A DNA stretch of 64,000 nt. It comes from Tubulanus polymorphus (Eukaryota; Animalia; Nemertea). Positions 1,395 through 63,860 of the stretch are shown piece after piece (the first letter of the stretch is position 1; every line of letters starts with the position of its first letter). The notes under the pieces are model-generated. The model was not told the DNA's origin and searched no databases. It saw only the letters and a list, made by a program, of their open reading frames with translations. The stretch spans positions 15,556,950 to 15,620,949 of the forward strand of contig NC_134029.1 of the NCBI RefSeq assembly GCF_964204645.1, given 5' to 3'. The position numbers were made by a program, and so were the translations under genes.

Positions 1395-1464
1395 TATTTA
1401 TAACACAAAAAAATCAAAACCTCAAACCACTAAAAATAATTTTAATAAAATTTTTCCTATATAA

Positions 1465-2794: not shown

Positions 2795-4460
2795 TGGCCA
2801 TAAGGTGATGTTTTTATTCCATCACCTAAAATATATCTTTTATTGTCGAATGGATTTAAGCTAGCTTTTTCATCTTCATGAATGTACATCTCGTGATCTT
2901 CTGATCTTAAACAATTCATTTTATGTTTCATTACAATTGAGTTATTATAAACACTTTATATAATCTTGAAATTCTATATGTTTGTCAACCACATGCTTTT
3001 TTATTCCTTTTAATTTTTTACCCTCATGATCTTTTGTTCTATAACTATACATTTTACTTCTTATCACAACAAATTCAATCATTTCATCACCCCGCAGTTC
3101 ATCTTTTAATTTACCAGGAATTTTCTTATTATCATTGCTAAATAATTCATGATGTTTTGGATAATTGCTAAAATCAAAATGATGTTTTAATGTTTTTAAG
3201 TCTTTTGTTATGTCATTTGTCTTGATTTTAAGTATGTAGGCGTCCGTATTGACCGCTATTAATGGAATTCCACAGTTAAATGTTCCATCTCCAGTTGTTA
3301 AATCATAAACATAATCTGTTGGGTTATATATTTCAAATAAATCTCTAACTTCTTCAGTTATTTCTTTTTCTGTGTGCCTTAGAATAAAACAATTTGGTTT
3401 AGATTTAATCAATCCAATATTCATATTAAAACCTAATGAATTGCATAATATATTTAATCCTGATATACCAACTTTTCCTTTTTGTGCAAATGTTATTACT
3501 GGAGAACTCGGAAATTTTTTAGCACCATCTGCTGCGTAGAATCCAATGAAGAACCATTTTCTGAAATTATCTTTTGCATTTAATACATAATCTGGAACTA
3601 TCTTTTCTTTTGTTGAGGTATTACTTTTAACTATTGCATGAATAAAGAATTCATCATTATATTTTATAGCAAAATCTTTAGGATTATTCACAAGTATTCT
3701 ATGAACTGCTGATGATTCTAAATGTTTTATTTGGATAAACATCTTCACAGCATTTTTTAATTCTTTCTAATAATTTCAAATCTTGATTGCATACATACCA
3801 ACAATATTTATTGCCCCAAACATAATTATACACACCTGCTGAACCATCACCCATGACAAATCCTTTGATAAAATATTCTTTTTCTTCTAATGTTTCAGGT
3901 TCTATATTATGAATATTATCAATTATTTCATCAATTGACATATAATTCATTCTTTGGAAAATTATTTTATGTAATGATTCATCTCCAATTTTTATATCAG
4001 TTGGTTTTATTTCATCACCATTTTGTTTAATTAAACTATGATCTTCAGAAACATCAACGAATCCTAATTTAGTTCTAACTCTATAGATTTTCTTATTTGT
4101 TTTATGCCTAATAATATTCTTTAATTTTTTCCATCCATTTCTTGTCCAAACATCTATTAATCCATTTATTTGTATTAATTCTTTTTCACCATATGAAATA
4201 TAAAGTTCATTTTGTTTTGGAAATATTTCTGAAATTCTTCTAATTAATATTTGGTTATTGAATTTTAATAATATTGGGGTATCAGCTATTCCAGAATCAA
4301 AATATAATATTTCAATATGTTTTTCCCCAAAAAGTGGTTGTAAAACATTATAATAAAAATCATACATTAATAATTTTGATATTTCTAAAACAGTTGAACC
4401 AATGAATATAGGTTTATTAAATTTCATTGACGTTCTTTTTGAATTTTACTGCTGTTAAAT
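2791..4460 (-). pseudogene. pPolB C-terminal fragment interrupted by an intein
   Basis: FNKPIFIGSTVLEISKLLMYDFYY..ILYFD|intein|TDAYIL..FDFSNYP..KLKDE..RSKMYSY..LNPFDNKRYIL; co-linear with the intein-free pol at 25247-25930. Confidence 0.93.
3248..4295 (-). mobile_element. Intein with LAGLIDADG homing endonuclease at PolB motif C (Pol-c site); one frameshift near 3720
   Basis: Block A SGIADTPIL; block B VDVSEDHSL; LAGLIDADG motifs FIKGFVMGDGS and FFIGFYAADGA; block F YVYDLTT; block G LIAVN|T with +1 Thr. Confidence 0.93.
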
Positions 4461-5016
4461 AATCCTTTTTGCTATAAATTCATTACAAACTTCAAATTTT
4501 ATTTCATCCACATTCATATTTTCTAATTGTTCTTTTCTTTCATTGGAATTTTCTGGAGTTTCAAAATCGATAACATTTTTTTATGATTTGCAGTTTTTTC
4601 ATGCCGAGCTTTATTAGATTTATCAATGTATTTTTACAATATTTACAATAATATCGATTTTCATTAACATCATTTTTTTTCTGTCTGGTAAACACTGTCT
4701 CCCATTTATTAGGGAAAAAATTACTTGTGGTGATGAGTGATTTAAAAAAGCAAAAAAAAATTTGATTCATTAAAAAATTAAATGAACCTGGATCATATGA
4801 GCGCGGTCACCTTCCCCCTGTATATAGCAAACACGCTATCAACCGTTTTCATTAGTGCCTCACTGCATCGATCTATCCGAGCGCAGCTGGTACACAATCA
4901 CTGTACTACTATATATAGCACAACGCTATCGACCGTTCTCGTCAGCGCCTCGATCAATCAAATTGTCCAGATAAGTCAATTCGGATTCTTAATATTTAAT
5001 TAATTTTATCATCAAT

Positions 5017-6694: not shown

Positions 6695-7260
6695 GTAAAA
6701 TTACTAGGCGCATCATGATGCTGACTGTTTAAACATGATATTCCACCGAATATATTCATAATACATTATATACATCTACATTGACAAGGTTAATTCTTGG
6801 TGGTAGATTTTCGTCACGATTGATATCGCTAATTGATCAGGCCTGCGTTTTTCGAAGCGGTGTTAAGTTTTCCCTTTGATAAGACTATTCCAGTGTTAAA
6901 TTTAACTATCCCGGTGATTGTTATCACAGGGATAACTTCTCGTTTTTCAAAGCATTTTACCCCAGTGATAACTATCACCGGGATAAGATCATTTATCCCA
7001 GTGATAAAAATAAGAAAATGGCCGACATTTCAGCCTAATCTCTCACTTCAAGAACTAACTTATAGGATTTCTTCAACATCACAGGATCACTGAGGCTACA
7101 CAGTGGTGTTTTAATATATTTTGTATATCTTATGTCACATATATGGATGTAGTATTGCCATCAGTAACCGTGCAACCATAACAATGAAAAAGAAATCAAT
7201 ATTTTGTTCCTATGTCTCTGTACAAGACCACAATTTAAGTCCGACAGTCACAGACACACA

Positions 7261-8491
7261 ATGGATAAATTTTCTGAGGACAAGAATTCTAACCTAAAAA
7301 GGAAACGAAAAGCTAATTTTACTTCGAGTGAGCGTGTTATTCTAACTGAAATTGTGAAGGCTAATGAAGATGTACTATTTTCAAAACTAACAAACACTGT
7401 AACGAATATCAAGAAACAGAAGTTCTGGGAGTCAATTGTCGCTAAAATTAATAGTCTAAGGTATCTGCGAAAGGACTGTTAGTGAGGTGAAAGATAAATG
7501 GAAGCACTGCGTTTCAGGCGCAAAAAAAGTTTGTCGCTTACGAAAAACGATATAAAGAAAACAGGAGGTGGCCCACCCACAGTGACATTAAACGACACGG
7601 ATGAAGTAATTTTGGTTATTTTTGAAGACTGTCCTTCTTTTCATGGAATCGATACCGGTATAGAAACAGATCGTAAGTTTGATAAACAAAAATTAACCCA
7701 TTGTTTTCTTAATGACGCCCTCAAAGAATCATTAAATTTAAAACAGCAATATACAGTTTTGACAGTTTTATATCTTGAAGGCCGAATTATTTAAACTGCA
7801 GTTATTTGTAGTAGTCCGCAGGTAGGCCTGCATATATTTTATTCTTACATTTCAGGCTTTGACAGTAGGTCTACTATTACCAGTCTACCGCCTACAGCTA
7901 CAATTTCGAAACAACCAGAAATTGATGAAAGACCAATCTTAACTGAAGGTAGGCCTAGCTGATTGTATCTATTGTATTGCATATTATATTCTTTCTTATG
8001 TAATATGCGATTGTCACATGAATACTATGCAAAATCTACCAGCTTTTGCTTTGTTCCATGAATGGATCAATTCAAATATTTCAATCTTGATTCCCTTTCA
8101 CAGTACCTCAGCAACTCACGAATGTGTCTAAAATAAGTGACGCCACAACATCAAATGACTGCAAGGAAGGTACGAAATGTCATGTCGTTCATAAACGAAA
8201 AAATGAAATATACAATAAATGCCTTATCGATAAACATGTAATATTTATTGTAACGGTTATAATAAGATTTCATTTACAGATATGGAGGCCACTTCGAACA
8301 AACCAAAGATTCCTCAGCAAATCCGTGTAACTCAGGATATGATTCGGCGGGTTCAATACGAAAATCTGAAATTAGATAGTGAAAGATTGCGCTTGACAAA
8401 AACCAACTTGGAACTTCAAAATGAAAAGATTATTTTGGAAATATATTTACTGCAGCAGCAGAATGGCGTAAAAGTTGTTAATGAACAATGA
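7261..8491 (+). pseudogene. Harbinger Myb/SANT-like DNA-binding protein, spliced and frameshifted
   Basis: KRKANFTSSERVILTEIV..KKQKFWESIVAKINS..ERTVSEVKDKW..KKTGGGPP; coiled-coil last exon. Confidence 0.85.
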
Positions 8492-8689
8492 TTTAACAAA
8501 TAAGATACATGTTTGTCTTATTTTAACCAGCCAACAGGCTTCCGAAATTCATCCGTTCAAAGTTTATATGTTTAATGATTTTCAGATATTTGTCTTTTTC
8601 GACATTTTTCAATGAGTTTAATTACATGAATAGATTATATTTAACGGATATGAGCTTTCTTGTTTTCTTTAGAAATCCAAACGCAAAAC

Positions 8690-10148
8690 GCACCAGTTAT
8701 ATGAAAAAGTCTGCACAATATGATTCCTCACAGCATTGCCAATATCTCGTCCTTCATACGGCTCCAACCAAATCGGAATTTGTTGTTGTGGTTCATATTC
8801 TATGTCAGGTTCTCCAAATTCTATGGCTAGATTATGCAACGCAAAGCACGCCGCAATTACATGACAACAACATGCTGGTTTCAATTGCAGTTCACCATGA
8901 AGAACTTGAAAATAATGTATAGAAAAATTAGTATCCTATTTCTCTATAGTTGATTTGATTGTCTGATAGAGTCTCAATCAGTTAATCAACTGCAATTAAT
9001 TGTTTATCCCCTTGAAGTATGTATCCGTGTTTTTCAAGAAAATAGAAAATCGCGATTTAATCGATGCATCGTAAAAACCTAAAATAAATGTAGTTCTTGA
9101 AAAGTGGAAGTTGAATTCTAGTCATAGTTGCTTCCCAGCAATTGAGTAATTTGATGATTACCAAAAAACGTTTTTTTTTCAATTTTCCAAAAGCCATTTC
9201 AATTTGTACTCTTGATGATGTATGCGCTCGGTTGTAACGCTCCTGTCCTAGATTACTTGGCCGCAAATATGGTGTCATTAGGTATGATGAGCAACCATAG
9301 CCACTATCACCAATAATCAATCCGTCTTCAAGGGTTCTGTAATTATCTTCTAAATATCTAAAATGCAATTTTCAGACAATATAAATGAATTAATTTAGAC
9401 AATATAAATTTAAACAAGGTACCAATTTTTTACCTCTTGAGTGCCGAGTTGCGAAAAATATGTGAGTCATGGCAGGAGCCTGGCCACTTCGCTACAACAT
9501 TGATAGATTTACCTATTTAAAAGAAAGTTGATTTACTGATAAACTCGATACTGACAGAATAAACCAACAAACAAGAAGCAAAACATACCTGTATGGTCAC
9601 ATACTGCCTGGGTATTTATTGAATGAAATCCTTTTCTATTAACATATGCATTTTCATTCTCTTGCGGGCCCTTGATACGAATCTGCGTACAATCAATTGC
9701 ACCAATACAATAAGGAAAACCTCCAAAATCGTAGAAACCTTGGCGTATTCGATTTTTATCCTGATTTGTGGTCGGCCAGACTATATATTCGTTACTTTTC
9801 CTGGCAAGCGCCTCTGATACTCTATGGACACATTTCCAAACAGTTGATTTAACAAGACCAAATGCCACCCAGTGCTTCCAAATAACTACCCGTTGCGTAA
9901 TATCGGAGAGCATCCTTCACTTGTAACTCAGCAGAAAGTGCTTTGGAACGTTGTGTATCATACGTTATATCTTCTCGAATTAAATCTGTTATTCGTGTGA
10001 TATTTTCCGAAGTAAATCTATATTTCTGTCTCACTTCATTTTCTTAATAATCATTAATTGCAAATTTAACTGTTTCGTGATATCGATAGCGGCGTGAGTG
10101 TCTATAAATTCGTTGTTGATAGATATCATCATAAAAAATGGCAGCCAT
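8690..10148 (-). pseudogene. Harbinger DDE transposase (HARBI1/DDE_Tnp_4 family), intron-containing, frameshifted
   Basis: KYRFT..ALRYYATGSY; GFPYCIGAIDCTQI..YVNRKGFHSINTQAVCD; KWPGSCHDSHIF; LIIGDSGY..RYNRAH..IEMAFGKLK; ACFALHN. Confidence 0.92.
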
Positions 10149-11744: not shown

Positions 11745-12525
11745 TTAATTGAATTGATCCCTCCCCCATTTTGTCCAAAATTTAACGATTCTCAGTTTAA
11801 CATAAGTCTCTAAAGGATAGCGCCCAAGCTCATCGTAGATAAATACACTAGACGTAGATCTTTTCAATCTGAGTAGATATTTAAAAAATTGTAGCTGAAC
11901 ACGTTTGAGGACCAGTGTGTTCTCAAAAACCCTAAATTTCACTGCCAAATAGCAATATTGGTAATACCATACTATCATAAAGTTTCAAGGTCAGATCTAG
12001 GTCTAATGAATGTTCACTTGGCTTTTTTGATACAAAAAATACCGCTTTCATAGCTTGAACCGAAAGATTTTTACGACATTGTGTGAACGATCCAGTGTAT
12101 GAAAAGAGAACACCCAGGACCTTGAACTTATCAACTATTTCTAATTTGTGGCCATTAATGTAAAATTCTGGTACGATTCTTAATCTTCTTTTTGAGAAGA
12201 TAATGACCTTTGTCTTATCATCATTAATCGCAAGTTTCCATTCTTGGCAATATTCGCAGAGATTATCTACAAGTTTTTGGATTCCCTCGGGCGAATCACT
12301 TAATAAACCGTGTCATCAGCATACATGTTAGGTCCGAAAAAATCTAGAGTTGGACTATTTCGTTCTAATAGATAGCTTTCCAGGTCGTTTAAAATGATAG
12401 AAAATAACATAGGAGACAGATTTTCACCTTGTCTTACCCCTAAATAGCTATCAAAAAATCTGACATTTTATTATCAGAAAAAAACACATGATTTGATACC
12501 TTGATACATATTATGTATAGTTAAT
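11745..12525 (-). mobile_element. Non-LTR retrotransposon (LINE) reverse transcriptase fragment
   Basis: GVRQGENLSPMLFSIILNDL near 12380-12440; YADDT near 12310-12325; WKLAINDDKTKVIIF; ELGRYPL tail. Confidence 0.88.
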
Positions 12526-17322: not shown

Positions 17323-17929
17323 AACAACTCAGATCAAGAGTGACTCTCCCGTTTATTAGGAAACACACGCAACTAGTGGAATAGGTTTGATTTACACACA
17401 TGTTGCAGGTATCAATTGTTTATCACTGTAGAATTTGTAATCCATAAAAGCCAAAATCAACATCAGCCGGAAACCCAGACCAAATCAATACATAATTTAT
17501 TGATTGAATCTACACTACGATATATGTATTTATTCAAATATTTCAATAAAAACATTAACTTCTTAAATCTAATCTATTCTAAATCATAATACGTTCTTAT
17601 CTGTGAATTCACTCAATCTATCGGCTCAGCAGGTGCTTAAGATGAGTTCTTAATAGGACAGATCCATTTTTAAGGATGGTGATAATACAGTATCATGATG
17701 TTTGAATGCCAAAATAAGTGCCTGGTCAAATATATTAATATTTGTGATTGTACGTCCACGTATGTTCGGTTTCAAAGCTGAATCATATTTGACGTTGACA
17801 CAGTGGTTGCATATTAGGTTCGAATCTGTCAATGCATTTTATTCTATGTATCGATATTTCAATTTACTACAATTCCCATCATTCTGAATGGCTTTACAGA
17901 AAACCCGTCATCGCTGCTTTGCAGCTATA

Positions 17930-18553
17930 TTATGTAACTATATTTTCATTATCATATTTCTTAGTGTTTGCTCCTAATATTTCATTTACAATGTTTGATC
18001 CTAATATTTCATAAGCATCGGTTAAATCTAATTCATCTTTATTAGGTGTTGCTAATAATAAATCTTCATATAATTCTTTACCATTTACTTTTTTATTTGA
18101 AACAAAGTTTGTAACATATATAAATGGGTGTTCTATAAATTCTCTTAAACCAACGCGTTCTCTAACATTAGTAATATGTATCTTTGTATTCATATGTTTA
18201 TTCCAATTTGATGGAGCGTTTGAAAATTCGCCTTTACAATAATCACAATAATTTCTATTTTCACTAATATTTAATATTATTTCATTATTAGATGTAGAAG
18301 GTATTGCATTATTAGATGTAGAAGGTATTACATTATTAGATGTAGAAGGTATTACATTATTATCAATTACATTACTTAAATTATCAACAACACCACTTTT
18401 ATTATTATCGATTTCTATTAGTTTAGTTTTATAAATTTTGAAAATAGGATCAAATATCAAAGCTATATTACAAGGTACTACATAATATAAACCATCATTA
18501 TTTTCATGTGTATCGATGTATGGCATATGTTTATATACTTTACCTCCTTCCAT
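17930..18553 (-). CDS. Polinton accessory ORF with a C2H2 zinc finger and 3x NN(V/A)IPSTS repeats
   Basis: YCDYCK..WNKHMNTKIH; 24-bp tandem repeat at about 18283-18360; TAAATG start. Confidence 0.55.
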   Translation of the reverse strand: MEGGKVYKHMPYIDTHENNDGLYYVVPCNIALIFDPIFKIYKTKLIEIDNNKSGVVDNLSNVIDNNVIPSTSNNVIPSTSNNAIPSTSNNEIILNISENRNYCDYCKGEFSNAPSNWNKHMNTKIHITNVRERVGLREFIEHPFIYVTNFVSNKKVNGKELYEDLLLATPNKDELDLTDAYEILGSNIVNEILGANTKKYDNENIVT

Positions 18554-18585
18554 TTATTATATAAATTTTTATTAAAGTTAAAATT

Positions 18586-19815
18586 CTAATACATAACACT
18601 ATTTAATTGAGAATTTACAATATTTAATTGCGCGTCAGATATAACATAAATGTGAAATTGTTGATTCTTTTATTCTTTGTCATGAATAATTGTATTCCAT
18701 CTTTAGTGTTCTGTAGTTTTTTTCCAGAACCATGTAATGGATTATCCTCTGTTGTTCTAAAATCTAACCATCATGCATATTTATTACCGGTATAATAATC
18801 AATTTGATTAATATTACAATTTTCAGATGATTTTACTTTTTCATTCATAAAATGTTTTCTAATTTCTGGCCATTGATCAATCATTCTCATTCCTTGACAA
18901 AATATTGTATTTGCTATTCCTTCGATAGTTATTTCTACTTTTGTTATTTTAGGATTATAATAATTATCAACATTTATTGCACCATTAGTATATGTTGCAA
19001 TGGTAAAAAATATTAATATACCTTTAATAGATCTTCTTGGGAAGTTAATATTCTCATTAATTATTTCATCATTTGCATTAATAGTTACAGTTTTAAATTT
19101 ATCAATATAATCATATAATAATGAAAATCCTTGATTGTATTGAGTTTGAATTGTGTTAGCAATATTTTCATCAGTTACTGTATCATATTCTAAACATATA
19201 TTCGATAATTTATAACCCCTATCTTTATTAACGCTAGATATTACAATTTCATTTACAGGAGCAAATGTTATCTCAAATATAACGTCTTCTTGAATTGCGT
19301 ATTTATATAAAGGCGCATTATTATTTATCAATTCAAAGTCTAATGGAATTTTATATTTGCTTCCATATATTCTTTTTTACTAATTTATCTATAGCATTAG
19401 TTAATATTGCATTATGTGCTTCTGATCTTAATTTATTTTGGTTTTCTGATTGGATTCCTTGAAATATCATATTATTTCTTTATATTAAATCTTTATAATG
19501 CATAAATAAATTATAATCATCTAATGAGAAAACTGTTTCTGGACCGATCTTTATTGTTAATTTTTTAATCAAATATCGTCCAACATTATCAACAACGTAA
19601 TTATTATTATTACCGATTACTTTTATATCAGCTGATAAATAAATACTATTTGGAACATAAAAAGTATTTTGTGTTAATCGAGGAATTCTAACATATAAAG
19701 TTTCATCGGGATTAATATTAGAAGGGTTATGAGTAATTATATGATGTGATCTTTCTGCTTTAATAGCATTAGATATTCTATGATTCTTAGAAGGATTGAT
19801 ATAACTCCCACTCAT
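18586..19815 (-). pseudogene. Major capsid protein, frameshifted
   Basis: ITHNPSNINPDETLYVRIP..LSNICLEYD..PRRSIKGILIFF..YALWLDFRT; highly similar to 62580-63860. Confidence 0.8.
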
Positions 19816-19834
19816 TTATTTAACAAAAAATTAA

Positions 19835-21265
19835 TTATTTATTTTTTATCATGTTTACTAACCCAAAAATAATTGCACTTACAACTGTAATTAAAAATAA
19901 AATAATATGTTCAGCAGCAAAGTTAAGAATATTCCCAGCAGATTTCAATATAAAACCAACAATCGATGCAATAACTCCGGGTAATGCTGCAGCAGATTTT
20001 TTAGATAGTTCCCATAAATATTTTGCTAATTTCTTTAAACCATCTTTAACTTTATCTTGTATAGAATTATTATTATCTGGTGGTTTATCCGGTTTATTGG
20101 GAGTAGGAGTAGATTTCAAAGAATTTGATATTGCCAAACCAATTGTTGTAAATAACATAGTTACAGCTGTTAGAATTGAAAGAATTGTTATTCCTTCTAA
20201 TTTGAATAATAATTTTATTCTATCTTACAACGATATTTCAGAATTTGGTTTTATCAACAAATCTTTAAAAATAACTTTTAATCTATTAATATTATAATCA
20301 TATGATTTTAATAATAATTTAATTTCTTCTTTTTGTAATTCTATGTTATATTCTAAATCATCTTTTTCTTTTTCTAAATACGCATTTCTTTTTTTAAATT
20401 CAATTTCTTCAATAACTTTATTATCTCTATCTAATTTTAGTTGTTCTATTTCTTTAATTTTATCAGTTCTATCTTTTTCCAAAGTTCTAATTTTAAAATC
20501 TCTTATACTTTTATCATGCGCAATTTCATCAGCTTCATTTCTTATACTAACAATTTCTCTTATTGCTTTATCAGAAAATATATCTAAATCGTCTAATTCT
20601 TGATCTGTTGCATCAAGTAATCCATTTGGTAAAAGTTTTTCAATTGGAACTTTATTTGATTTAAGTTTACCAGAAGTTGTTTCTGTTTCTAAATTATTAT
20701 CGATTGTTTCAAATAATTTTTCAATTCTTTGTTTGAATACTTTTCTATTTTTATTTATTTCTTCTTGTGTTACATCTTCTATTTCATTACTATTTCTTAT
20801 TCTTTTAATTCTATCTGGTTCTAATTTTCCCAAAGTTGATTCCGCTAATATTTTATCTTGATTTTTATAAGAGATATCAATATAATAATCATCTTTCAAA
20901 CGATAATAATATTCACCATCTAAATATTTTAATTCTTGTACTAAATATCTAGCGCCTCTATCATTGATATTATATCCAGAATTTTCAAATACATGTTTGA
21001 AATCATAAATATATTCATTATATTCTAAATTTTGCTTTAATAAACCTTGATTTTCATTTTCAGGATTTATTCTCGATCTAGTTCTTCTATCAAGTTCATC
21101 TGTTGATGGGCCTTTAGAACCTCTATCTGCTAAATTAGAATTATATGATGATGAATCATCATTATCAATATTAATATCAGCAGACACATAATCATCATTG
21201 TTAGTATTGACATCATTATTATTTCCCATTTCTTCCATTTCATAATCTTCTCCACCTTCTTCCAT
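19835..21265 (-). pseudogene. Large coiled-coil protein with C-terminal hydrophobic helices; premature stop at 20225
   Basis: ORFs 20225-21265 and 19835-20158 are in the same frame; C-terminus is homologous to 63880-64000. Confidence 0.6.
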
Positions 21266-21281
21266 TTACATAATAAAAAAA

Positions 21282-21518
21282 TTAAAATTTGAAATATAAT
21301 ATTCCTCCGATTACAATTCCTATAAAAGTTAAAGCTAATTTAGCATTTTCATGGGATTTATTATCATTATCAGTTTTAATTATATCATGTTGAATATTAT
21401 CAGTTTTTATATCTTCTGATGTATTGTAATCTTTTATTTTAGAATCATTATTTAATTTAATATTATTAGTTTTAGTTTCTGTTGATTGAATATGTTTTTT
21501 ATTTTTATCGCCTTCCAT
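21282..21518 (-). CDS. Small Polinton protein with a C-terminal transmembrane helix
   Basis: TAAATG start; LALTFIGIVIGGILYF. Confidence 0.5.
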   Translation of the reverse strand: MEGDKNKKHIQSTETKTNNIKLNNDSKIKDYNTSEDIKTDNIQHDIIKTDNDNKSHENAKLALTFIGIVIGGILYFKF

Positions 21519-22575
21519 TTAATTTTGGAGCAGTAATAATCTTTTTATTTAAATCATTTAATCCAAATGAATTATTTATTGTTGCAGTTTTAATTAGATT
21601 ATTATAACCAATTATATTTCCCATCTTTAATACTAAATCATTAGAAATAATTAATAGATCAGGGCCTATACAATAATTTAGTCTAATATGTGATTTATCT
21701 AAATAATTTTGATATCTTACAATGTTTTCTGGAATCGATCTATTTTTATCATTATGAATGGAATCTTCAAATAATACTTTGAATTGTTTCTGCGCATCAA
21801 ATGAAGTGTTATCATTTCCAACTATTGGTGATCTTGTTTCAACTTGCGCACCTAGAATACATATCAAATAAGTTCTAATAGATTGATTTATTCTTTGTAT
21901 ACCTGATTTTGTAAAACCTTCACCATTTTCTAAAATGAAATAAACCCAACCATTATTATTATCAATGTTATAATTATGATAAGCTGAAATTCTATGCATA
22001 TAATCAATTTCATACTCTTCACCAACACCTTGCAATTTACCATGCGCTCTAAAATCGGAATTAATATTTATGTTAAATTCATTACATATCTTATAAAACT
22101 TAGATAGATTAATATTATTATCCAATTCTTTAAAATATTTAGATCTGGGTAAAGGACATTCTAATTCATTTAATATCATTCTGATTTGAAAATATGCGTG
22201 AAATCTAAATATTGTGTGAATTAATTTTAAATCAGAATAATTCAAATTTTTATCTAAGTTATTTAAATGATCATTCCAGCTTATACCACAACCAGTTGTT
22301 GCACAATAAACAGCAAAATTTAATTGATTCTGCCAATATTTCATATTAGATTTTACTTTATATATATGATATTCATCTCGAGTAAAAGTAACTTCATATG
22401 TATTAAATATATTTTCCATTTTAGAAATAAAAAACTGTGATTCAGTAACATAAATTTCTAAATTAGTTAATGAATTTAAAACTACATTTTTATATGTAAT
22501 ATTTTTGTTAAAACCTATTGCAGGAATATTATATTCAATTGATTTATTATATTGGAAAGCTTTTGGAAACCCCAT
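21505..22575 (-). CDS. Polinton protein of unknown function (356 aa)
   Basis: Intact ORF, TAAATG start; WQNQLNFAVYCATTGCGIS and FHAYFQIR motifs. Confidence 0.7.
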   Translation of the reverse strand: MGFPKAFQYNKSIEYNIPAIGFNKNITYKNVVLNSLTNLEIYVTESQFFISKMENIFNTYEVTFTRDEYHIYKVKSNMKYWQNQLNFAVYCATTGCGISWNDHLNNLDKNLNYSDLKLIHTIFRFHAYFQIRMILNELECPLPRSKYFKELDNNINLSKFYKICNEFNININSDFRAHGKLQGVGEEYEIDYMHRISAYHNYNIDNNNGWVYFILENGEGFTKSGIQRINQSIRTYLICILGAQVETRSPIVGNDNTSFDAQKQFKVLFEDSIHNDKNRSIPENIVRYQNYLDKSHIRLNYCIGPDLLIISNDLVLKMGNIIGYNNLIKTATINNSFGLNDLNKKIITAPKLNGRR

Positions 22576-22589
22576 TTATATAATTAAAA

Positions 22590-23027
22590 AATTAATAATT
22601 AACTAATTCTTTTAATAATTTATCTTGTTCTTCAACTGTTATATGACCATTTAAACTTATTATATAATCTAGTGTATTTTCAATTTATTAATCTCTTTTA
22701 TATTAGTTTTAATTTTTTCTTTATTACTTTTTATATTTAATTTTGAACTTATACCAGTTAAAACACTTGAACTTAATCCTAACACACCAATTGATATAGC
22801 TAAAGGTGTAAATGGTGAAAATATTGCTAGAAATGTTATTACAGAACTAATTGTAACCGAACCACTAATAATAAGATAATATATAATTTTAGATTTTAGA
22901 TATTTTTTCTTTTTTATCTTCAAATTCAAATTTAGTCACTTTCAAATTCTAATATTTGTTTTTGTAAATATATTTTTAATTTAGTTTTATTTATATCATG
23001 AGGAATAATATCAATATTATCATCCAT
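22590..23027 (-). pseudogene. Small two-TM Polinton protein, frameshifted
   Basis: TAAATG start at 23027; hydrophobic stretch in ORF 22669-22929. Confidence 0.5.
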
Positions 23028-23044
23028 TTATTTAGCAAAAAAAT

Positions 23045-23480
23045 TACTAACTAGTAAATCTATACGCTACAAATATAACAATAACTGTTCCACCTAAAAT
23101 CCATATTATTTCATATTTCTGTTGTTCTTTACTTGGCTTTACTTGGGGCATAATAATCTGATAATTTAGGTTTGTATAGATGTAATTTTTCTTTATTGGT
23201 TACCGCGTTATATAAACTCATTGCATCTTCAACTGATTGAAAATCTCTGTGTGAAATTTTCTGATCATATAATTCCTTGTTAACATAATCCATATAGTTT
23301 TGTCTCTTTTCTCCATATTCTTCTGCTGCTTTATTATATTTTTTCTAATGCTAAGTTATGTCTTTTTTGTTCTGTTAATGATCCATTTTTATCAATATGT
23401 TTAAATAAATATCCACCACCAGTAAATGCTAAAGCGTTAACAATTGCCGATCCCATAATAGTTATAACTGCAGAAGCCAT
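23045..23480 (-). pseudogene. Small Polinton protein (MASAVITIMGSAIVNALAFTGGGYLF..EQKRHNLALEK), frameshifted
   Basis: Manual translation from TAAATG at 23480; N- and C-terminal hydrophobic segments. Confidence 0.55.
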
Positions 23481-23504
23481 TTATTTAGTAAAATCATTAC
23501 GCAT

Positions 23505-23726
23505 TTATATGGGTGGAATATATTTTTGTTTTTCCAAATAATCAATAGTTAAATTAGATAAAGTAACTGCTAATGTAGATTTTAAAATATCATTTATATC
23601 AAATCTATCAACATTAACACTTCCCATTTTAAATACTTTTTTTAATACCATTGAATAACCAACAGTTCCAACTGATAGTAATGCTCCATTATATAATCCA
23701 GTTATTATCCACTTATTACCACTCAT
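23505..23726 (-). CDS. 73-aa Polinton membrane protein
   Basis: Intact ORF; its ATG directly follows the upstream TAA (TAAATG). Confidence 0.6.
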   Translation of the reverse strand: MSGNKWIITGLYNGALLSVGTVGYSMVLKKVFKMGSVNVDRFDINDILKSTLAVTLSNLTIDYLEKQKYIPPI

Positions 23727-24071
23727 TTATTTATCAAAAAAATTACAAAAATCATCAAAATATTTAGTTAACATATTTATGATTAATTCAACATTTATTT
23801 CATTATTCCTTTTATGATTATCATATATTTTGGTTAATATGTTTTTAATATCATCAATAATTCCATCTTCATTTAATTCATAATATTCTAAAGGCGTTTT
23901 AATTAAATCAATTACTTTTTCCATATTATAATTTTCTTTATTAATCATTGATGCATTGTTAAATGATTTACTTTTTATATCAGTCATTACATCATTTAGT
24001 TTAATTCTTATTTCTTTACCATGTTTAAAATCAAACCCAAAACATATACTCGGTCCAATAGTTATATTCAT
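23727..24071 (-). CDS. 114-aa Polinton hypothetical protein
   Basis: Intact ORF with TAAATG start. Confidence 0.55.
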   Translation of the reverse strand: MNITIGPSICFGFDFKHGKEIRIKLNDVMTDIKSKSFNNASMINKENYNMEKVIDLIKTPLEYYELNEDGIIDDIKNILTKIYDNHKRNNEINVELIINMLTKYFDDFCNFFDK

Positions 24072-24095
24072 TTATATAGTGAAAAAAATTACTCT

Positions 24096-24846
24096 TTACA
24101 TCTTATAAACTAATTCATAAATTACAGGAAAGTTATTCAAATCAATTAAATATCCATTATGATTTATGATTTCTAATCTAAAATTATTAAATTGAGGAAT
24201 GCATGGTTTGAAATCACATTCAGCTAAATTATAATTTATTTGCGTTCCAAATTCTTTAACATTCTTCAATGGTAAAATGTTTAATAAACCAGAATTACAA
24301 GTAATATCTTTAGTTGCTTCGAATGTTTTTGTAGGATCAATTAAATTGCAATAAATATAAAAGTGTGTAAAAGGTATTAAGTTTGGTGTAGCATCAGCAT
24401 TGCGCATCCTTACATCTGGGGTTATTCCTAAAATTTTAGCTAAAGGTTTTTTAACTAGAAATTGATGTTGATCTTCATTACCTAATTTTATTCTTATTTT
24501 ATCGGAGCTATCACTTTTAATCAGTCTTTATCCAAATCCAGCAGATGCACCCATTTTCAACCGAGCTCTTCTATTAATTTCCTGCGCTAATGTATCTAAA
24601 TTATATAATCCTGGTTTAAGATAAAGATGAAACCATTTACTTTTATTTCTATCATGAATTAAAAAGAAAATGTTCAATAGTTTTATCCGATACATTGTAA
24701 AAAGAATTACATAAACTTATATTTACTAATTTTAAATCAACACAATTTTTGAATTCTCTATCTAATTGTACCAGTAAATTATGTGATTTATAATTTGTAA
24801 GCATTCTTGAATCAACAAATATTCTGTATTCTTTTAATTCCGCCAT
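24096..24846 (-). pseudogene. Minor capsid protein (penton), frameshifted
   Basis: IFVDSR..NSFYNV..PGLYNL..FYIYCNLI..LLNILPL..LEIINHNGYLIDLN, a pattern typical of Polinton/virophage pentons. Confidence 0.72.
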
Positions 24847-24863
24847 TTATTTTACATATTTTC

Positions 24864-25217
24864 TTATTCGAAATCTATTTCATCGTGCCCTTTTTCATTC
24901 TTACCTTTGTATACGAAATAGAAATCACCAGAACATAATTCTTCTAGATCTTCACTTGATAATCTATGAAATCTATCCGGTAAATATGTTCTGAATTTAT
25001 ATGTATTTCCTTTTAATCCTTCATATTCTAAGTGTATAACTAATCTATCTCCATATTTGTTAGTAACTGTAACAATATCTGTACTTAGATATTTCTTATG
25101 GATTATTAATTCTTTTAACTTCTTAAATTTATAATCTACTGATTTGACATTTGAAGTATCTTTTATTCTATCTAAAAATAATTTGTTGTTCTCACTGTTT
25201 GCTTTTTTACTCTCCAT
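24864..25217 (-). CDS. 117-aa Polinton protein, possibly OB-fold/SSB-like
   Basis: Intact ORF next to pol; near-identical copy at 46272-46610. Confidence 0.6.
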   Translation of the reverse strand: MESKKANSENNKLFLDRIKDTSNVKSVDYKFKKLKELIIHKKYLSTDIVTVTNKYGDRLVIHLEYEGLKGNTYKFRTYLPDRFHRLSSEDLEELCSGDFYFVYKGKNEKGHDEIDFE

Positions 25218-25246
25218 TTATAATACATATTTTTATTAAAATTTGA

Positions 25247-28200
25247 TTAACACGTTAGAATTCTTTTCATTATCTCGTTCTCTTTGGTTTCTTCTCTTTT
25301 AAATTTTAGATATTCATCTAAATTGCAACCATAAGCAACTGTATGAATTCCATCATCTAAAATATATCTTTTATCATCAAATGGGTTTAGACTTATCTTT
25401 TCAATTTCTTCAATAAAAATTTCATGATCTTCAGATCTTAAACATCTCATCTTATGTTTTCTAACTTCTTCATTGAATATACAATTGATGTAATCTTTGA
25501 AATGAATATTCTTTTCTACTACACTTTTGGTTATTCCTTTTAACTTTTTAGGTTCATGTTCTTTAGTTTTATATGAATACATTTTAGATCTAATTCCTAT
25601 GAATTCTATCATTTCTTCACCACCTAATTCATCCTTAAACTTCCCTGGAACTTTTTTATTATCACTGCTAAACAATTCATGATCTTTAGGATAGTTGCTG
25701 AAATCAAAATGATGTTTTAATGTTTTTAAATAATCAGTTATGTTATTAGTTGTTATCTTTAATATGTAAGAATCTGTATCAAAATATAATATTTCTATAT
25801 GTTTTTCTCCAAAAAGTGGTTGTAATACATTATAATAGAATTCATACATTAGTAATTTTGATATTTCTAAAACTGAAGCACCAACATAGATTGGTTTATT
25901 AAATTTCATAGAAGATCTTCTCATTTTAACTGCAGCTAAATTTTCATCAGATATTCTGTTACCTAAAAACTTAGGATATGATTGTAAATGCCTTATCCTT
26001 TTGCCATTACTTACTAACTCAATATCATTTCTATTTCTAATATTTTCACAAGTCTTACCATAGAATGCATTGTTCATTAACTTGAAGAAATCTTTCTCAA
26101 AATCAGTTTTAGCTTCAGTTCTCCGTTTGGTGTTAAAATCTATATATTTTTCTAACCATTTAGATTGGCTAAATGAAATATATCTATGTACTTTTTTTAG
26201 GACCATTCCTTGTTTTAGATAAAACTTTAACATTCTATAATGTACTACATAATTATATTTATCTTCTTGAGTTACCATTAACTTTTCTGTATGAATATGA
26301 TTTTCGGGTTTAATTCCTTTTTGATAATTTGATAATTCTTCATGAGTAACAGTTTTATGTTCGGGGCAGTATGCTAGATTTCTAGATTTAAATTTAATAT
26401 GTTCAGGATATTCTAAATCTACAACAAAAAAGTAACCAGTATCTGAATCATCTGCATTCTTCATGAGTAACAGTTTTATGTTCGGGGCAGTATGCTAGAT
26501 TTCTAGATTTAAATTTAATATGTTCAGGATATTCTAAATCTACAACAAAAAAGTAACCAGTATCTGAATCATCTGCAATATCTAGGATTCTTTTCTTCCA
26601 ATCAAATTTATCATTATTTTCATGTTGTAAAACTTCACTTATTTCAAATACTCCATAGGGTTGTGGTTCCATCAATGCCCAACCGTATAAATCATTTGCA
26701 TCTATATATAATAACTTATATCCAGGGTTATCATTTACATTGAAATATCTATCACCTAATACACCTGAAACTCCTCCTCTTATAGATTTTTCAAATAATA
26801 GTAATTGATCTATATTTGTTAACAAATCCATTTTTATATCTGTAAATTTTAATCCACAATCCCATGTTAAACCTGGGCTAGAATAACAATGACACGGATC
26901 AATGTTAAAATATTTTAGGTTTACATCTCTAAACCTTTCAAATATATCAGTTAATAAAAATACATCTGATTTTAGATATAAATCTACTAATTGCCCATGA
27001 TTTTTCATTCCAAAATGATTCCAAATATTCAATGTTCTATTATATCCTTCATCTTTAACATATTCATTTTTTAATTCATCATAGAATTGTTCTTTTAATA
27101 ATTCAGTTATATTGAAATCATTATGTGATTTATAAAATGAATATGGAATTGCGCCTTTATATCTCATTAATTGAAAATCATCATTATTTGGGTAGTGTTG
27201 CTTTAATATTTTTAATTCATCATCAACTAATGATTTTGATAAGTTATCTAATGAACTATCAAAAAATCTATATGAATCTATAAATCTTAAACACCCAAAT
27301 TGGAATGATATATAATTCTCAGATGTTCTAGCTAACATTTTAAATCTATAAGTTGGTATTTTATCTTTTGATCTATTTGAATTTAATCTTTCTATTTCAT
27401 TATTAATTTCTTCTATTTTATGGCATAACTGTTTGATGAATAAATGTGCGTCATAGCCTGATAGATTATGAAATATAACTGGTATAAAATTGATTTTCTT
27501 AGCTTGTAAGTTACAATTCTCATGTGCAGCGCCTCTAAACTTTCCATTCAAATGATCATGGTCTCTTACTTTTTTATCTTTATAATTAAATATCTTTTCA
27601 CAATAATAACATTTATCTGCAAACTCAAATGCTTCTTTATCTTCTTCTGTCATCATAATTTCTATATTTTCATTTAACTTTTCATTAAATTTTATTTCAT
27701 ATTCAATTAATAAGTCACAAAAATGATTGATAACATTTTCATTACTATAATGATAATATTCACTTCTAATTAGTTCTGGATAATCAGATTTAATATATAA
27801 CCCAAAAGCTGCGGCTGATTGATGAATCTTTTTAATTGTATTTGTTATTGGCGGTTCTTCTGAAAAATCATTTTCATTAGAATTTAATTTCTTTCTTTTA
27901 TAATATATTTCTTTTCTATCTTGATCAGTTAATTTAACTTTAGTTCTTTTAGTTTAGTTCTTTATTTAATGATTCAAAATCTCCATATACGACAAATGGA
28001 ACTTTATTTTTGTAATCATATTTTTTTTATTCTAATATTTTATCTTTTTCATTTGGTAAAACTAATTTACAATAATCATGATTATCACATAATTGTTTAT
28101 GATTTAATAATGCACTTTCAGTTCTGAATTTATGTAAACATTTTCTACATAGATATATTTTATTATCAAAATCATTTTCTGATTTAAAAAATAAATCAAT

Positions 28201-29430
28201 TCTTTTAATCCACATATAATGATTCTCATAATATAATATATCTATAACATCATTTGACTCATAATCTTTTGATAGGTATAAAAGTTCTAATGTATAATGT
28301 TTTATATTGTTACCTTTTGTATTTGGAAATTTGATTAAATCAAATACATTTATTCTTAAATTATTATCTCTTTCTATTTTTGGGATATTTTTGATTCCAA
28401 CAGGGTAATTATCTATCTTATAATTTTTTTCAAATGGTTTATAATGTGTTAATCTATAAGTATGTTTATTATAATCTTCAACTGGGTGTAAACAACTAAT
28501 TATTGCCCATAGAAAACATTTATCATCAGAATTTTGTACATTTATAACAGCATTAGTTTTAAATGGTAATTTGATATAACTCGATGCTTCAATATCTGGT
28601 CCTTTATAATATGATAAATTATTTTCATCAATTGGTTTTGATTTAGTTAACTTATTATATTTTGTGTTATAAACATGTAAAGTCATAAATATTATTTCAT
28701 CAAATATTAAACCTGATCCTTCAAAATATTTCTCTTCTATTTTAGTTTTTTCTTCATTATAACATTTATCTAATTTATCATCTATATGTTGTTTAGATAT
28801 AATATGTTGTGAATGAGAATTTATATTATATATTGGTTTATCTTCACATTTTATAAACTTTACTTTAGAAGATATACTAATTTTAGGGTATTCAACATCT
28901 GTAATTATTTTTATGATATTTTTCATATTTTCTAAATGTTTTTTATTTTCTTCTAATGATTTTCCTTTATGAAATTTAAACTCAATAGCAGCTGGGCCAA
29001 TATCACTTTTGAATGCTTCAGTTATTTCTATATCTTTTTTATTATCTAATGAATTAATATAATTTCTTACATCTTCCATGTATGGTCTTTTATTGTTTAA
29101 TTTATTTCTTTTAATTGTCTTATGTTTCTTATCATTATCAAAATAATCTTCACCTAAAATATCATTATTCATATTTCTAATATGACTTTTAGATTTTAAA
29201 TGTTCTTTATAATATCTTTTATCACTGAATGATTGATTACATGTATCACATTTGTATGTTTCTTTTTCATTCTTTAATTCATATAATTTAGTTTCTAATA
29301 TATCATCTTCATATTCTAATTTCAATTTATTCTCTAAACGTGTTTTAGTTTTATTGTGTCTTGTTTTTGAGATTTATCTATATTTATTCTACATGTTGAA
29401 CAGTAATACTTATTTGCTTCGATTTTAATA
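25247..29430 (-). pseudogene. Protein-primed family B DNA polymerase (pPolB), intein-free, frameshifted
   Basis: N-terminal zinc fingers; EndoVII-like VRDHDHLNGKFRGAAHENCN; exonuclease FHNLSGYD and YLKSDV; motif A YIDANDLYG; motif B KLMNNAFYGK; motif C YFDTDS. Confidence 0.96.
26336..26577. repeat. 121-bp tandem duplication that frameshifts pPolB
   Basis: ttcttcatgagtaac...tctgca at 26336 and 26457. Confidence 0.92.
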
Positions 29431-29687
29431 CTAAATTTTTTTTAAAATTGATTTTAGAAGTTCAATGATTTAAATATTTAAATTATTTCAATCACACTTT
29501 ACTAACACTTTTAATGTTTAAAAATCTAACTCATACAAATATAAATATTGAAATAATGTTTAAAATATATCTATATATCTATTCTATAAGAGCTCGTACT
29601 CTCGTACTCTGGCTTGAAAGCCTACTTTTCTAATAACTTATATATGTTATTCATTTATATTTTATTCATGTATATGAATATTTTAAG

Positions 29688-30098
29688 AGTAATAGGGGTT
29701 TACTTGTTCTAGGTTAAAGGTTGAATGGTCGAGTTCATTAAAAAACAAATATTAAAAGTAATTTAAAACTATAATATATTTTCATAGTCGTGTGTATTTT
29801 AGTTAAATAATAGAATTATTAATTATTATTTGAATATATTTGATTATATGTATTTGTGTATTGTAAATAAATCAATTGGTCGCGGAGCGGAGCTTTAGCA
29901 AAGCGGAGCGACCAATTGATATAATACAATATGCTTTTTAAATTTAAATTATTAATATCTTAGAATAAATATTTAGTTATAATATGAAATACACACGGCT
30001 GTGAAAATATATTATAGTTTTAAATTACTTTTAATATTTGTTTTTTAATGAGCTCGACCGTTCGACCTTTGGCCTAGAACAACTAAACCCCTATTACT
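29688..30098 (+). repeat. 411-bp terminal palindrome of Polinton B
   Basis: agtaataggggttt...aaacccctattact arms with a central atcaattggtcgc/gcgaccaattgat stem. Confidence 0.88.
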
Positions 30099-46271: not shown

Positions 46272-46610
46272 AAATTTGATATTAAAATGGAAAGCGAATT
46301 CCTAAATAGAATAAAATATACTACAAATGTAAAATCTGTAGATTATAAATTTAAGAAGTTAACAGAATTAACATTACATAAGAAATATTTAATTACAAAT
46401 ATTTATATAGTTACTAACAAATATGGAGATAAATTAGTTATTCACTTAGAATATGAAGGATTAAAAGGAAATATTAAATTCAGAACATATTTACCAGATA
46501 GATTTCGTAGATTATCAAGTAAAGATTTAGAAGAATTATGTTCTGGGGATTTCTATTTCATATACAAAGGTAAGAATGAAAAATGGCACCATGAAATAGA
46601 TTTTGAATAA
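46272..46610 (+). CDS. Copy of the 117-aa Polinton protein
   Basis: Near-identical to 24864-25217. Confidence 0.6.
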   Translation, partial: KFDIKMESEFLNRIKYTTNVKSVDYKFKKLTELTLHKKYLITNIYIVTNKYGDKLVIHLEYEGLKGNIKFRTYLPDRFRRLSSKDLEELCSGDFYFIYKGKNEKWHHEIDFE

Positions 46611-49291: not shown

Positions 49292-49339
49292 ATAGTCAAA
49301 TAATTATTGAATTAAGTTAAATGATTTAAATATCTAATA

Positions 49340-49585: not shown

Positions 49586-49698
49586 AATTTAATTGTTATT
49601 TGATTTAATCATTTAAGAGTTTAATATTTTAAAAATGATTATAAAATATTTAATTAAAAACTAGCAAATATTTATTAATTTTCTAGTTTCTTAAATAA

Positions 49699-49896: not shown

Positions 49897-49916
49897 TGAA
49901 TTAATTAAATGAATAA

Positions 49917-61020: not shown

Positions 61021-61034
61021 TAAATAAATTCATA

Positions 61035-61624
61035 TTTAAATCGGTGTTGTAATCGAAATAGTAATTTTGATCTTTTATCATTTTTCAATTTATCCATATA
61101 TTATGTAAATCATGTGGAATCATATCATTTTCCTCAAGTGCATTTTTCATCGATTTCCTATCTTTATTGTAGAATAATACTAAAAATCTTATATTCTCCC
61201 TAAAATCTTTCACAATCGAATTATATTTTTGATTTAAAACACACGTTGTTATTCCAAAATGTCTCCCAGAGAAAGCTAAATAGCATAACTCACTTTCTCT
61301 AACTTTTGAATCATGTAAATTTGCCCAATCATCTATGATAAATAATGCATTTGATCCTTTATAGATATCAATTGCTATTTTGATACAATTATCTAAATTT
61401 TCTTCAACTGTTTTAGGATTTAATACAATAAATTTATTATTTCTAGTAATATTTCTATCATAAGTTTGATTAAATTCAGACGTTTGACAAAATAATACTA
61501 TATTATCAAAATAGTTTTTATAAATAGTTTCTAATAAATTTAATATAAATTAAGTTTTTCGACAATTTGTTACACCAGAAATTAACATATTATGAGGCTC
61601 AAATATAAATAATTCCCTATTCAT
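61035..61624 (-). pseudogene. A32/FtsK-HerA-type packaging ATPase with internal stops
   Basis: Manual translation: MLISGVTNCRKT (degenerate Walker A), LFIIDD (Walker B), SGRHFGIT..NQ..REN. Confidence 0.85.
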
Positions 61625-62548
61625 TTATGTATTTTTAATTTTACTCGATAATATCCATTCATTGTATTTATCTGGCCATCCAACCCATTTTACTAAAGAA
61701 TATTTTTTTCTATTAACAGTTTTTGTTTTTAATACTTTTTCAATTTTATATTCTTGTTCTAGATTTTCAGTAGTTAAACTTAATTCTTCTTCATAAAAGT
61801 ACCCATCTACTTCTTTACCATTTAAATCTTCTAATTTATAGACATATGGTTTTGTTGTTATTACCTTTTTTATTTTGTATATATCTCTAGTAAAATTACG
61901 ATCATATCCTTTGTCAAATATCTTTTCATACTTAGAAATTCTAACATTTTGACCAACTTTAAATTTAGGTTCACCAAAATCATCTATAAGAAATAATATA
62001 AATTATTCCATATAAAATTTTGTGATTATCTAAGAGTTCATGAACAAGTGAATGATCGAATTCTTTTCCATCATCAAATTGTATTTTTTCTGGTTTTAGT
62101 TTATCATCCGAAAGAAATTTTCTTAAAACATTTGATGTTTGTACAGCATCTTTTTTGTAAAGTGGGAAGCTCCATACATAACCACTAAAAATATCAATTA
62201 TATTTAATATCCACCAATAATCATTATTATCTTTCTCAACATTTTTCTTATCAATTAAATCTCCTTGCCACTGTTGATCTACATAACTTACCATAGTTTT
62301 ACGAGTTTTATATTTTCTAACAATTTTTTTATGCGTTGTATATGTTGGTTGTTCTAACATAAATTCATTTTATCTTTATATTTAACTAAACTTTGTGGGA
62401 TTATCTTATCTAATTTATCTAATTTTACTTGACGCCATATGTTTTTTACAGAAGAATAAGCAACCGAACTCTCAGGATTATAATATAAATTTCTTAGATA
62501 TTGTTCTCTAGTATTTCGAGTTTTTTTTACCCCCCCCCCCCCCCCCAT
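61625..62548 (-). pseudogene. Retroviral-like (rve) integrase with C-terminal chromodomain; frameshifted and internally deleted
   Basis: YYNPESSVAYSS; QWQGDLID..IIDIFS..IQFDDGKEF; KFKVGQNVRISK..FDKGY..YFYEEEL; LVKWVGWPDKYNEW. Confidence 0.92.
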
Positions 62549-62579
62549 TTATATATCGTTAATTTTAAACTTTATATTT

Positions 62580-63860
62580 CTAATATTGAATACTATCTAA
62601 TTGAGAATTTTCAATATTTAATTGCGCGTCAGATATAATATAAACGTGCATTTTGAAATTTTTGATTCCTTTTTTCTTGTTCATGAATAATTGTATTCCA
62701 TCTTTTGTATTTTGTAATTTGTTCCCAGAACCATGTAATGAATTATCCTCTGTTGTTCTAAAATCTAACCATAGTGCATATTTATTGCCGGTATAATAAT
62801 CAATTTGATTCATATTACAATTTTCAGATGATTTTACGTTTTCATTCATAAAATGATTTCTAATTTCTGGCCACTGATCTATCATTCTCATTCCTTGACA
62901 AAATATTTTATTCGCTATACCTTCAATAGTTATTTCTACCTTTGATATTTCAGGATTATAATAATTATCAACATTTATTGCACCATTAGAATATGTTGCA
63001 ATGGTAAAAAATATTAATATACCTTTAATAGATCTTCTTGGGAAGTTAATATTCTCATTAATTATTTCATCATTTGCATTAATAGTTACAGTTTTAAATT
63101 TATCAATATAATCATATAATAATGAAAATCCTTGATTGTATTGAGTTTGAATTATGCTTGAAATATTTTCATCAGTTACTGTATCATATTCTAAACATAT
63201 ATTCGATAATTTATATCCCATATCTTTAACAACGCTAGATAGCACAATTGCATCATCTTTAACAACGCTAGATAGCACAATTTCATTAACAGGAGCAAAT
63301 GTTATTTCGAATATAACATCTTCTTGAATTGCGTATTTATACAAAGGTGCATTATTATTTATCAATTCAAACTCTAATGGAATTTGATATTTGCTGCCAT
63401 AAATCTTTTTTATCAAATTACCTGTAGCATTAGTTACTACTGGATTATTAGCTTCTGATCTTAATTTATTTTGGTTTTCTGATTGGATGCCTTGAAATAT
63501 CATATTATTTCTATTTTCTTTTGTTAACCATAAATCTTTATAATGCATAAATAAATTATAACCATCTAATGAGAAAACTGTTTCTGGTCCAATCTTTATA
63601 GTTAATTTTTTAATCAAATATCCTCCAACATTATCAACAACATAATTGTTATCATGACCAGTTACTTTTATATCAGCAGATAAATAAATACTATTTGGAA
63701 CATAAAAAGTATTTTGATTTAATCTCGGGATTCAAACATATAAAGTTTCATCAGGATTAATATTAGAAGGATTATGAGTAATTATATGATAAGATCTCTC
63801 TGCTTTAATAGAATTAGATATTCTAGAATTCTTAGAAGGATTTATATAACTCCCACGTAT
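62580..63860 (-). pseudogene. Major capsid protein, second copy; 5' end disrupted, 33-bp in-frame duplication
   Basis: 345-aa ORF highly similar to 18586-19815; IVLSSVVKD occurs twice. Confidence 0.8.

Follow-up and report, generated by a model that had tools for sequence, protein, structure and literature searches.

Polinton copies and an interrupted polymerase gene

The window, the whole 64-kb stretch of DNA that was analysed, contains AT-rich Polinton fragments (20-27% GC) embedded in host DNA of 36-39% GC. No host genes were found in these 64 kb, and an Rfam search gave 0 matches. Three copies, referred to as A, B and D, were distinguished (Table 1). Domain matches in copy D to Pox_A32 (E=1e-7) and rve (E=7e-9), with Chromo at the cut-off, define a gene set that, as judged from sequence, places the A/B/D family among the Polintons. 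The match of the capsid-like region of copy B to PF16903 was weak and under the cut-off (E=0.005). The Polinton/Maverick gene set of protein-primed PolB, rve integrase, packaging ATPase and capsid was found at family level, across copies B and D; with the capsid match weak, no single copy of the window holds the full set. Terminal inverted repeats and a 6-bp target duplication also typify Polintons/Mavericks; A and B are both fragments, and a 250-nt inverted repeat at 29688-30098 adjoins copy B.

Several further features accompany these copies. The CpG observed/expected ratio was 0.53-0.67 in Polinton DNA (1100-4700, 17900-29600, 59300-64000) versus 0.94-1.05 in flanking host DNA, which could reflect methylation targeting the elements or an inherited viral bias. 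Between A and B lie a decayed Harbinger transposon (Myb_DNA-bind_5, DDE_Tnp_4) and a reverse-transcriptase fragment, at 7168-9916 and 11748-12312. A near-palindromic AT-rich element at 46600-54100, whose arms (48147-50631 and 51211-54091) are about 96% complementary, contains 24-nt and 45-nt arrays and starts with pieces of the B polymerase N-terminus and end sequence.

The protein-primed polymerase of copy B is 67% identical to P0001, which matches PF03175, and its named relatives are from arthropods, at about 50% identity. Together with the Harbinger transposon and its Myb_DNA-bind_5 domain, and with Atlas neighbours that fall in Chordata and Arthropoda clusters, all scoring under 0.9, these relatives suggest that the host is likely an animal. 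One of the breaks in the gene is an exact 121-nt tandem duplication, representing either decay or an assembly artefact. The same gene carries a second nuclease, an endonuclease VII-like domain at 26451-27953 (PF02945, E=1.5e-5) that is common in the family.

Comparison of the two polymerases revealed an insertion site in copy B that is empty and in copy A filled. On the minus strand, the sequence of B is QPLFGEKHIEILYFD|TDSYILKI, the site lying between 25778 and 25777; A has the identical 15 residues, then a 1,048-nt insert (4295..3248) and then TDAYILKI. This arrangement in copies 22.5 kb apart (22,530 nt from start to start) had been pointed out in the initial annotation and was confirmed, as was the difference in the first downstream codons, ACG GAC GCC in A and ACA GAT TCT in B. 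The N-exteins, described there as almost identical, are so near the site, where 2/48 nt differ, and less so farther out (87% identity over the 144 nt upstream); on the downstream side, identity is 76% over 300 nt. Homology of the A N-extein to B stops at 4460, and frame breaks lie near 4441 in the N-extein and near 2945 in the C-extein. Against the 2/48 differences in the last N-extein stretch stand 17/48 in the first C-extein stretch (Fisher p=2e-4, for a window picked post hoc), and by codons the two sides differ at 8/41 (N) and 33/76 (C) positions (p=0.014). Some of these differences are private to B: at two positions, 97-99% of reads differ from B. A GC-richer start of the A C-extein had likewise been proposed. 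The GC3 excess is real, with 8/16 codons compared with 18/132 elsewhere in the A exteins (p=0.0016, post hoc) and a GC3 of 8 reached in 2/346 and 0/486 windows of the B ORFs; its peak, however, straddles the junction and takes in the last codons of the intein.

Table 1 Features of the Polinton copies in the window, by position.
Feature	Position	Strand	Remarks
Copy A	about 1.1-4.7 kb		polymerase remnant of ~200 codons flanking a 1,048-nt insert
C-extein of A polymerase	2797..3247	-	75% DNA identity to B; tblastn match in two frames
First 16 C-extein codons of A	3200..3247	-	17/48 nt differ from B; GC3 8/16; haplotype tracks intein in host reads
Intein of A	3248..4295	-	1,048 nt; Ser first, Asn last, then Thr+1; frame-shifted
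Second LAGLIDADG motif	3524..3553	-	Asp at catalytic position
Frame break between the two endonuclease motifs (approximate)	3700..3720	-	ORFs 3699-4445 and 2945-3766 overlap; alignment to P0001
First LAGLIDADG motif	3843..3875	-	Asp at catalytic position
N-terminal splicing region	3960..4295	-	blocks A and B; block-B His kept
N-extein remnant of A protein-primed polymerase	4296..4460	-	85% to B over 165 nt
Copy B	about 17.9-29.9 kb		protein-primed polymerase gene split over three ORFs
Capsid-like region of copy B	18550..19955	-	88% identity to copy D at 62545-64000 (1,458 nt)
Polymerase gene of B, protein-primed	25247..29373	-	three ORFs; 86% to unbroken 1,363-aa P0060
Empty intein site of B	25777..25778	-	junction of YFD and TDS, polymerase motif C
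Exact 121-nt tandem duplication	26335..26577	-	one of the breaks in the B polymerase
Third Polinton copy (D)	59.2-64 kb		ATPase, integrase and capsid-like genes
Copy D genes	61085..63731	-	packaging ATPase, integrase with chromodomain, capsid-like gene

Class 1 inteins are characterized by an N-terminal Ser or Cys, a block-B His, a C-terminal Asn and a Ser, Thr or Cys at +1; a penultimate His is common in them, though not universal. The insert of A has Ser1, the block-B His, two LAGLIDADG motifs with Asp, a block-F motif, the terminal Asn and Thr+1. Its splicing motifs are worn, with Ser replacing Thr in block B and Val preceding the terminal Asn; the penultimate residue is Ser in P0001, Lys in P0198 and the giant-virus relatives, and His in the P0193 and P0200 groups. 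The insert length equals 1 mod 3, i.e. one net frame shift, and because the break falls between the two LAGLIDADG motifs, A cannot encode the endonuclease as it stands. The first intein piece scored 28.7 bits against the intein N-terminal model TIGR01445 (cut-off 24.5), and the two pieces are 59% and 55% identical to the unbroken intein of P0001. In a PDB sequence search the N piece matched PI-PkoII at E=0.004 and the C piece gave no match. Pfam gave no match in either piece; among unbroken relatives, PF14890 was above the cut-off for P0193 and P0228, and PF14528 for P0001, P0193, P0200 and P0228. At this conserved site an insert is missing from B and from 119/120 relatives, and is in frame in P0001 (354 aa).

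For structure prediction we used P0242, an unbroken natural relative of the A intein, in place of A itself. With a 47-row alignment, P0242 folded as an intein with a LAGLIDADG domain (pLDDT 90.5). PDB matches of the model were TliVMA, PI-PkoII, PI-PfuI and I-DmoI, the best of them inteins carrying endonucleases (E 1e-17). Among named viral matches, those at the top were giant-virus polymerases, the best one a phycodnavirus polymerase. By its sequence features, the A insert is a class 1 intein of the pol-c allele with a LAGLIDADG endonuclease, and splicing and cleavage are predicted for its unbroken relatives. A free-standing nuclease insert lacking a splicing domain was rejected, since splicing blocks are present, and so was an assembly artefact as the source of the intein, since reads cover the whole intein and skip it cleanly.

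Filled and empty alleles in the host and across Polintons

To survey alleles we used read set X5, of which about 12% was read and which has the same species label as the best holders; it was taken as the species of the window. Mean depth over the intein was 212 (133-260 in 15 bins). Exact skipping of the intein is seen in at least 76 reads (those of the two main joint rows), and a further 130 exit A at the same place; 100 reads exit B precisely at 25778 into intein-like sequence. The intein is thus polymorphic within one Polinton family, as the initial annotation had proposed. The filled share in X5 was about 20% at 88% likeness (108/545) and 38% at 80% likeness (212/555). As reads that are 99% alike put the single-copy depth at 3-4 or below, the host has roughly 50-70 or more filled copies, a rough figure that assumes X5 to be the species of the window.

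Depth on B drops by about 108 at the site. A second drop, of about 112, lies at 25729, and 83 reads exit B there into A-like flank. Among the top six rows of loose ends for X5, none joined the downstream flank of B itself to the intein. Depth steps and loose ends on B together imply that most filled copies have one downstream haplotype in common. In the host the intein follows one subfamily; the common downstream haplotype is as compatible with a single filled subfamily as with co-conversion, and A and B can be read as relics of a filled and an empty subfamily. The GC-richer Asp codon occurs in 206/394 reads crossing the B site. Other intein-bearing contigs (three in X2, two in X3) leave the A sequence at 3239-3258, a few codons before the intein end, a weak hint from few contigs that the junction patch differs between filled copies. 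A hypervariable target site in the host was rejected because other places are equally polymorphic.

Among the 120 best relatives of the B polymerase, P0001 alone (1,693 aa, unbroken) has the intein. A search with its endonuclease region returned 31 matches, comprising 15 Polinton-type exteins, 3 of giant-virus type and 13 too short to call, and 146 new representatives included 133 Polinton polymerases without and 3 with the intein (3/136). The nearest exteins of A, P0064 and P0183 (92% and 78%), are empty. Besides A, the filled branches are P0198, P0001 (which P0209 resembles closely in its intein), P0200, the P0193/P0202 group and P0268; public data thus place the intein in five or more branches of Polinton polymerases other than that of A. 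The intein also occurs in clusters P0193, P0194, P0197 and P0207, which comprise 4, 41, 55 and 22 members and whose contigs measure 12-825 kb, indicating at least one other large genome with many filled copies. P0200 (MBV2113503.1) is filed under a clam-symbiont bacterial genome bin, and its 2.5-kb contig is likely host or viral DNA in that bin.

On an extein tree of 33 rows (8 filled and 25 empty, hand-chosen from about 140), the filled label needs 6 changes, 5 of them forced by starred branches. One filled clade was rejected (AU p=7.9e-6), as was a clade of A, P0198 and P0001 (2e-4), and A is separated from P0198, its nearest filled relative, by empty P0064. The filled label was clustered no more than in shuffles (74/500). 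A 138-row tree, from which P0063, P0074 and P0132 were left out for misregistered sites, gave 5 changes, 3 of them forced. The initial annotation had suggested comparing extein and intein trees of pPolB copies genome-wide, with a single clade of filled exteins lacking shared junction SNPs as the argument against homing; across genomes the intein-bearing polymerases are not one clade, so that this argument fails at the cross-genome scale.

Filled alleles resemble their empty sisters up to the junction, where residues match those of the own sister (YFD, YQD, ASD), and filled P0200 shares 88% identity with empty P0078 across 481 aa. Both A and P0198 have Thr-Asp-Ala; the empty sister P0064 has Ser. 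The ratio of intein to extein distance was 0.64-2.7 over 55 pairs, with the intein distance never far below the extein distance. Since the two distances track each other, spread appears to have been local, without long jumps between Polinton lineages. Wherever a Polinton intein covers the two motifs, both of their Asp residues are retained, and between deep lineages the endonuclease region is conserved at 48-52% and the splicing region at 40-49%.

One pair stands apart: the empty allele P0181 differs from P0061 at 7/1,241 aa, and 5 of these lie no more than 15 aa from the site (p about 2e-7; 0/9 other pairs). The patch spans residues 1052-1068. In this one case, at the protein level, the pattern points to site-centred conversion, possibly as a scar of cut-and-repair or of exact intein loss.

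Origin and persistence of the intein

The sequences nearest to the A intein are inteins of giant-virus-type PolB, at 40-44%, and 53/59 matches in a search with the first piece of A were giant-virus-type PolB. From a metagenome scan we fetched 80 loci and from viral contigs 1 weak locus; 71 of these 81 had a giant-virus-type extein and none a Polinton-type extein. Neighbours of three giant-virus-type loci encode PCNA, an adenine methylase and a ubiquitin protease, which fit giant viruses, and no hallmark capsid gene was found among them. Inteins related to that of A also match P0024 and P0059, proteins with topoisomerase II domains, i.e. a different host gene. In half-intein trees, 10 and 11 Polinton rows form one clade (SH-aLRT 99 and 100) beside 44 other rows; these are quick trees, and long branches come together close to where the Polinton clade begins. 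The trees show the Polinton inteins as one clade nested inside giant-virus pol-c inteins, and this nesting together with the wider spread in giant viruses points to transfer from giant virus to Polinton.

We consider a single entry of the intein into Polintons, from a giant virus, to be probable, followed by long survival through homing into empty alleles of close relatives. This proposal starts from what was observed, an insert with its site and motifs and two alleles in many copies, and from trees in which the Polinton inteins, as opposed to the exteins, form one clade in the giant-virus pol-c inteins. Splicing would restore a working polymerase, as Ser1, the block-B His, the terminal Asn and Thr+1 suggest. 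The endonuclease would cut empty sites and repair would copy the intein in, presumably mostly within a lineage, given that intein and extein distances track each other. Least sure is the place of homing, which may for the most part involve Polinton genomes that replicate in the same cell rather than decayed copies in chromosomes; replicating genomes are favoured because decay marks the chromosomal copies seen here, and because the filled copies of the host look like one expansion. Continued homing is suggested by an endonuclease as conserved as the splicing domain, by both Asp residues being kept and by filled alleles that match their empty sisters up to the junction.

As no long jump between Polinton lineages was seen, the deep tree is compatible with vertical inheritance and recurrent loss, and one could propose a single ancient gain with no later homing, after which the intein was inherited with the polymerase and often removed by recombination with empty alleles or by precise deletion. 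The parallel intein and extein distances, an intein tree that broadly follows extein groups and the one filled haplotype in the host all agree with such a history. It would, however, need many exact losses, with the intein in 1/120 nearest polymerases and 3/136 representatives, and precise loss has been called difficult (PMC10710043); moreover, the endonuclease is not decaying across lineages, and no Polinton mini-intein was found in the search with the first piece of A. We regard a purely inherited intein as unlikely. Independent capture of giant-virus inteins by several Polinton lineages would account for the patchy distribution, for the giant-virus-like YGD before the intein of P0001 (1/120) and for the same site being filled in many giant-virus-type polymerases (53/59 matches), but all sampled Polinton inteins fall in one clade in both half-trees, which makes repeated capture highly improbable.

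Homing between integrated chromosomal copies, with the GC-richer codons marking a co-conversion tract and with A and B representing donor and target types, is close to what the initial annotation had put forward. Filled and empty alleles do occur in one genome in many copies, the divergent 48-nt tract adjoins the intein and is common to most filled reads, and A and P0198 have Thr-Asp-Ala where the empty sister P0064 has Ser. Nevertheless, A has no nuclease-coding capacity as it stands, and none of the reads listed links the B flank to the intein. The named codons proved poor markers of a tract, even though the downstream haplotype common to most filled reads does provide shared flanking SNPs: the Asp codon variant is present in about half of the empty-site reads, Thr-Asp-Ala is also found in the empty alleles P0181 and P0073, and synonymous change in the first 16 C-extein codons is not above that of the remainder (7/11 vs 26/65, p=0.19). 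Private decay of A as the source of Thr-Asp-Ala was rejected, since it also occurs in P0198, P0181 and P0073. As A and B are both broken and 13-24% diverged, the two copies do not qualify as a donor/target pair, and the nearest exteins of A are other, empty proteins. For the most part, then, the data do not support a donor/target pair linked by a co-conversion tract, and homing among chromosomal copies seems improbable to us.

Beyond single entry with homing among close relatives, a bolder reading, which we put forward tentatively and with more doubt than confidence, is that the giant-virus intein acts to this day as a natural gene drive among the endogenous Polintons of animal germlines, with site-centred conversion patches as scars of cutting and escape. 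If true, animal chromosomes would here have their first working intein, and with it their first intein-borne homing endonuclease.

Relation to known inteins and polymerase inserts

Polinton polymerases contain a giant-virus-type pol-c intein with endonuclease that is polymorphic within and across genomes. Full-text literature searches gave no earlier description of an intein from a Polinton polymerase or from an animal chromosome; sources outside this scope, among them Repbase, InBase and subscription papers, may contain one. The word 'intein' occurs 0 times in the main texts of Jeong 2023 (10.1101/2023.08.22.554363), Starrett 2021 (PMC8502044) and Barreat 2021 (PMC8097293), and the available parts of PMC12220804, PMC5718144 and PMC2777158 mention inteins only in general. 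The Polinton pol-c intein appears undescribed. Inteins were stated to be absent from metazoan genomes, with 0 tabulated for Metazoa, in the available parts of the 2018 survey (Green 2018, PMC5784728); here, an intein of complete type was found in tens of copies of a likely animal genome and in further eukaryotic assemblies. Gene flow from giant virus to Polinton would have crossed polymerase subfamilies, a distance at which pol-c homing was called implausible (PMC549080), and would imply that both replicated in one cell. With filled and empty alleles in one genome, the homing-cycle question of how an endonuclease persists without fixing becomes approachable by phasing alone.

The pol-c site of family B polymerases is known from the Mimivirus PolB intein and corresponds to archaeal PolI position III (Ogata 2005, PMC549080). 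Polinton inteins have the same site (YGD|TDS there, YFD|TD here), the Ser start, the Asn end and Thr+1. In contrast to the pol-c inteins described, their host is a protein-primed polymerase of PF03175 type, in which a variable residue replaces Gly, and they reside in a nuclear chromosome, in many copies of an integrating element. Inteins in viral-like DNA polymerases were also reported on nuclear scaffolds of algae and a labyrinthulid, with intragenomic spread between paralogues discussed (Gallot-Lavallee 2023, PMC10710043). The Polinton case likewise is a viral polymerase intein within a eukaryotic nuclear genome, whereas those inteins belong to giant-virus insertions in protists and algae; neither Polintons nor metazoans are mentioned in the available parts of that text or in two of its supplements.

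HNH and VSR nuclease inserts are known in Polinton pPolB (Jeong 2023; Krupovic 2024, PMC11071308) and, like the A intein, place a nuclease domain inside the polymerase. No splicing domain is described for them in the available parts of these sources, whereas the A intein has splicing blocks and interrupts the catalytic motif, so that its removal would be needed for polymerase activity. That such nuclease inserts stem from intein invasions was offered as a suggestion only (Krupovic 2024), and the Polinton pol-c intein provides a concrete case for this untested idea. For LAGLIDADG inteins such as VMA1 and PRP8, the homing-cycle model predicts that an unused nuclease decays (Gogarten and Hilario 2006, PMC1654191). 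As in that cycle, the Polinton endonuclease persists long and filled and empty alleles occur side by side; unlike the allelic microbial loci of VMA1 and PRP8, the population in which they occur is a multi-copy mobile-element family.
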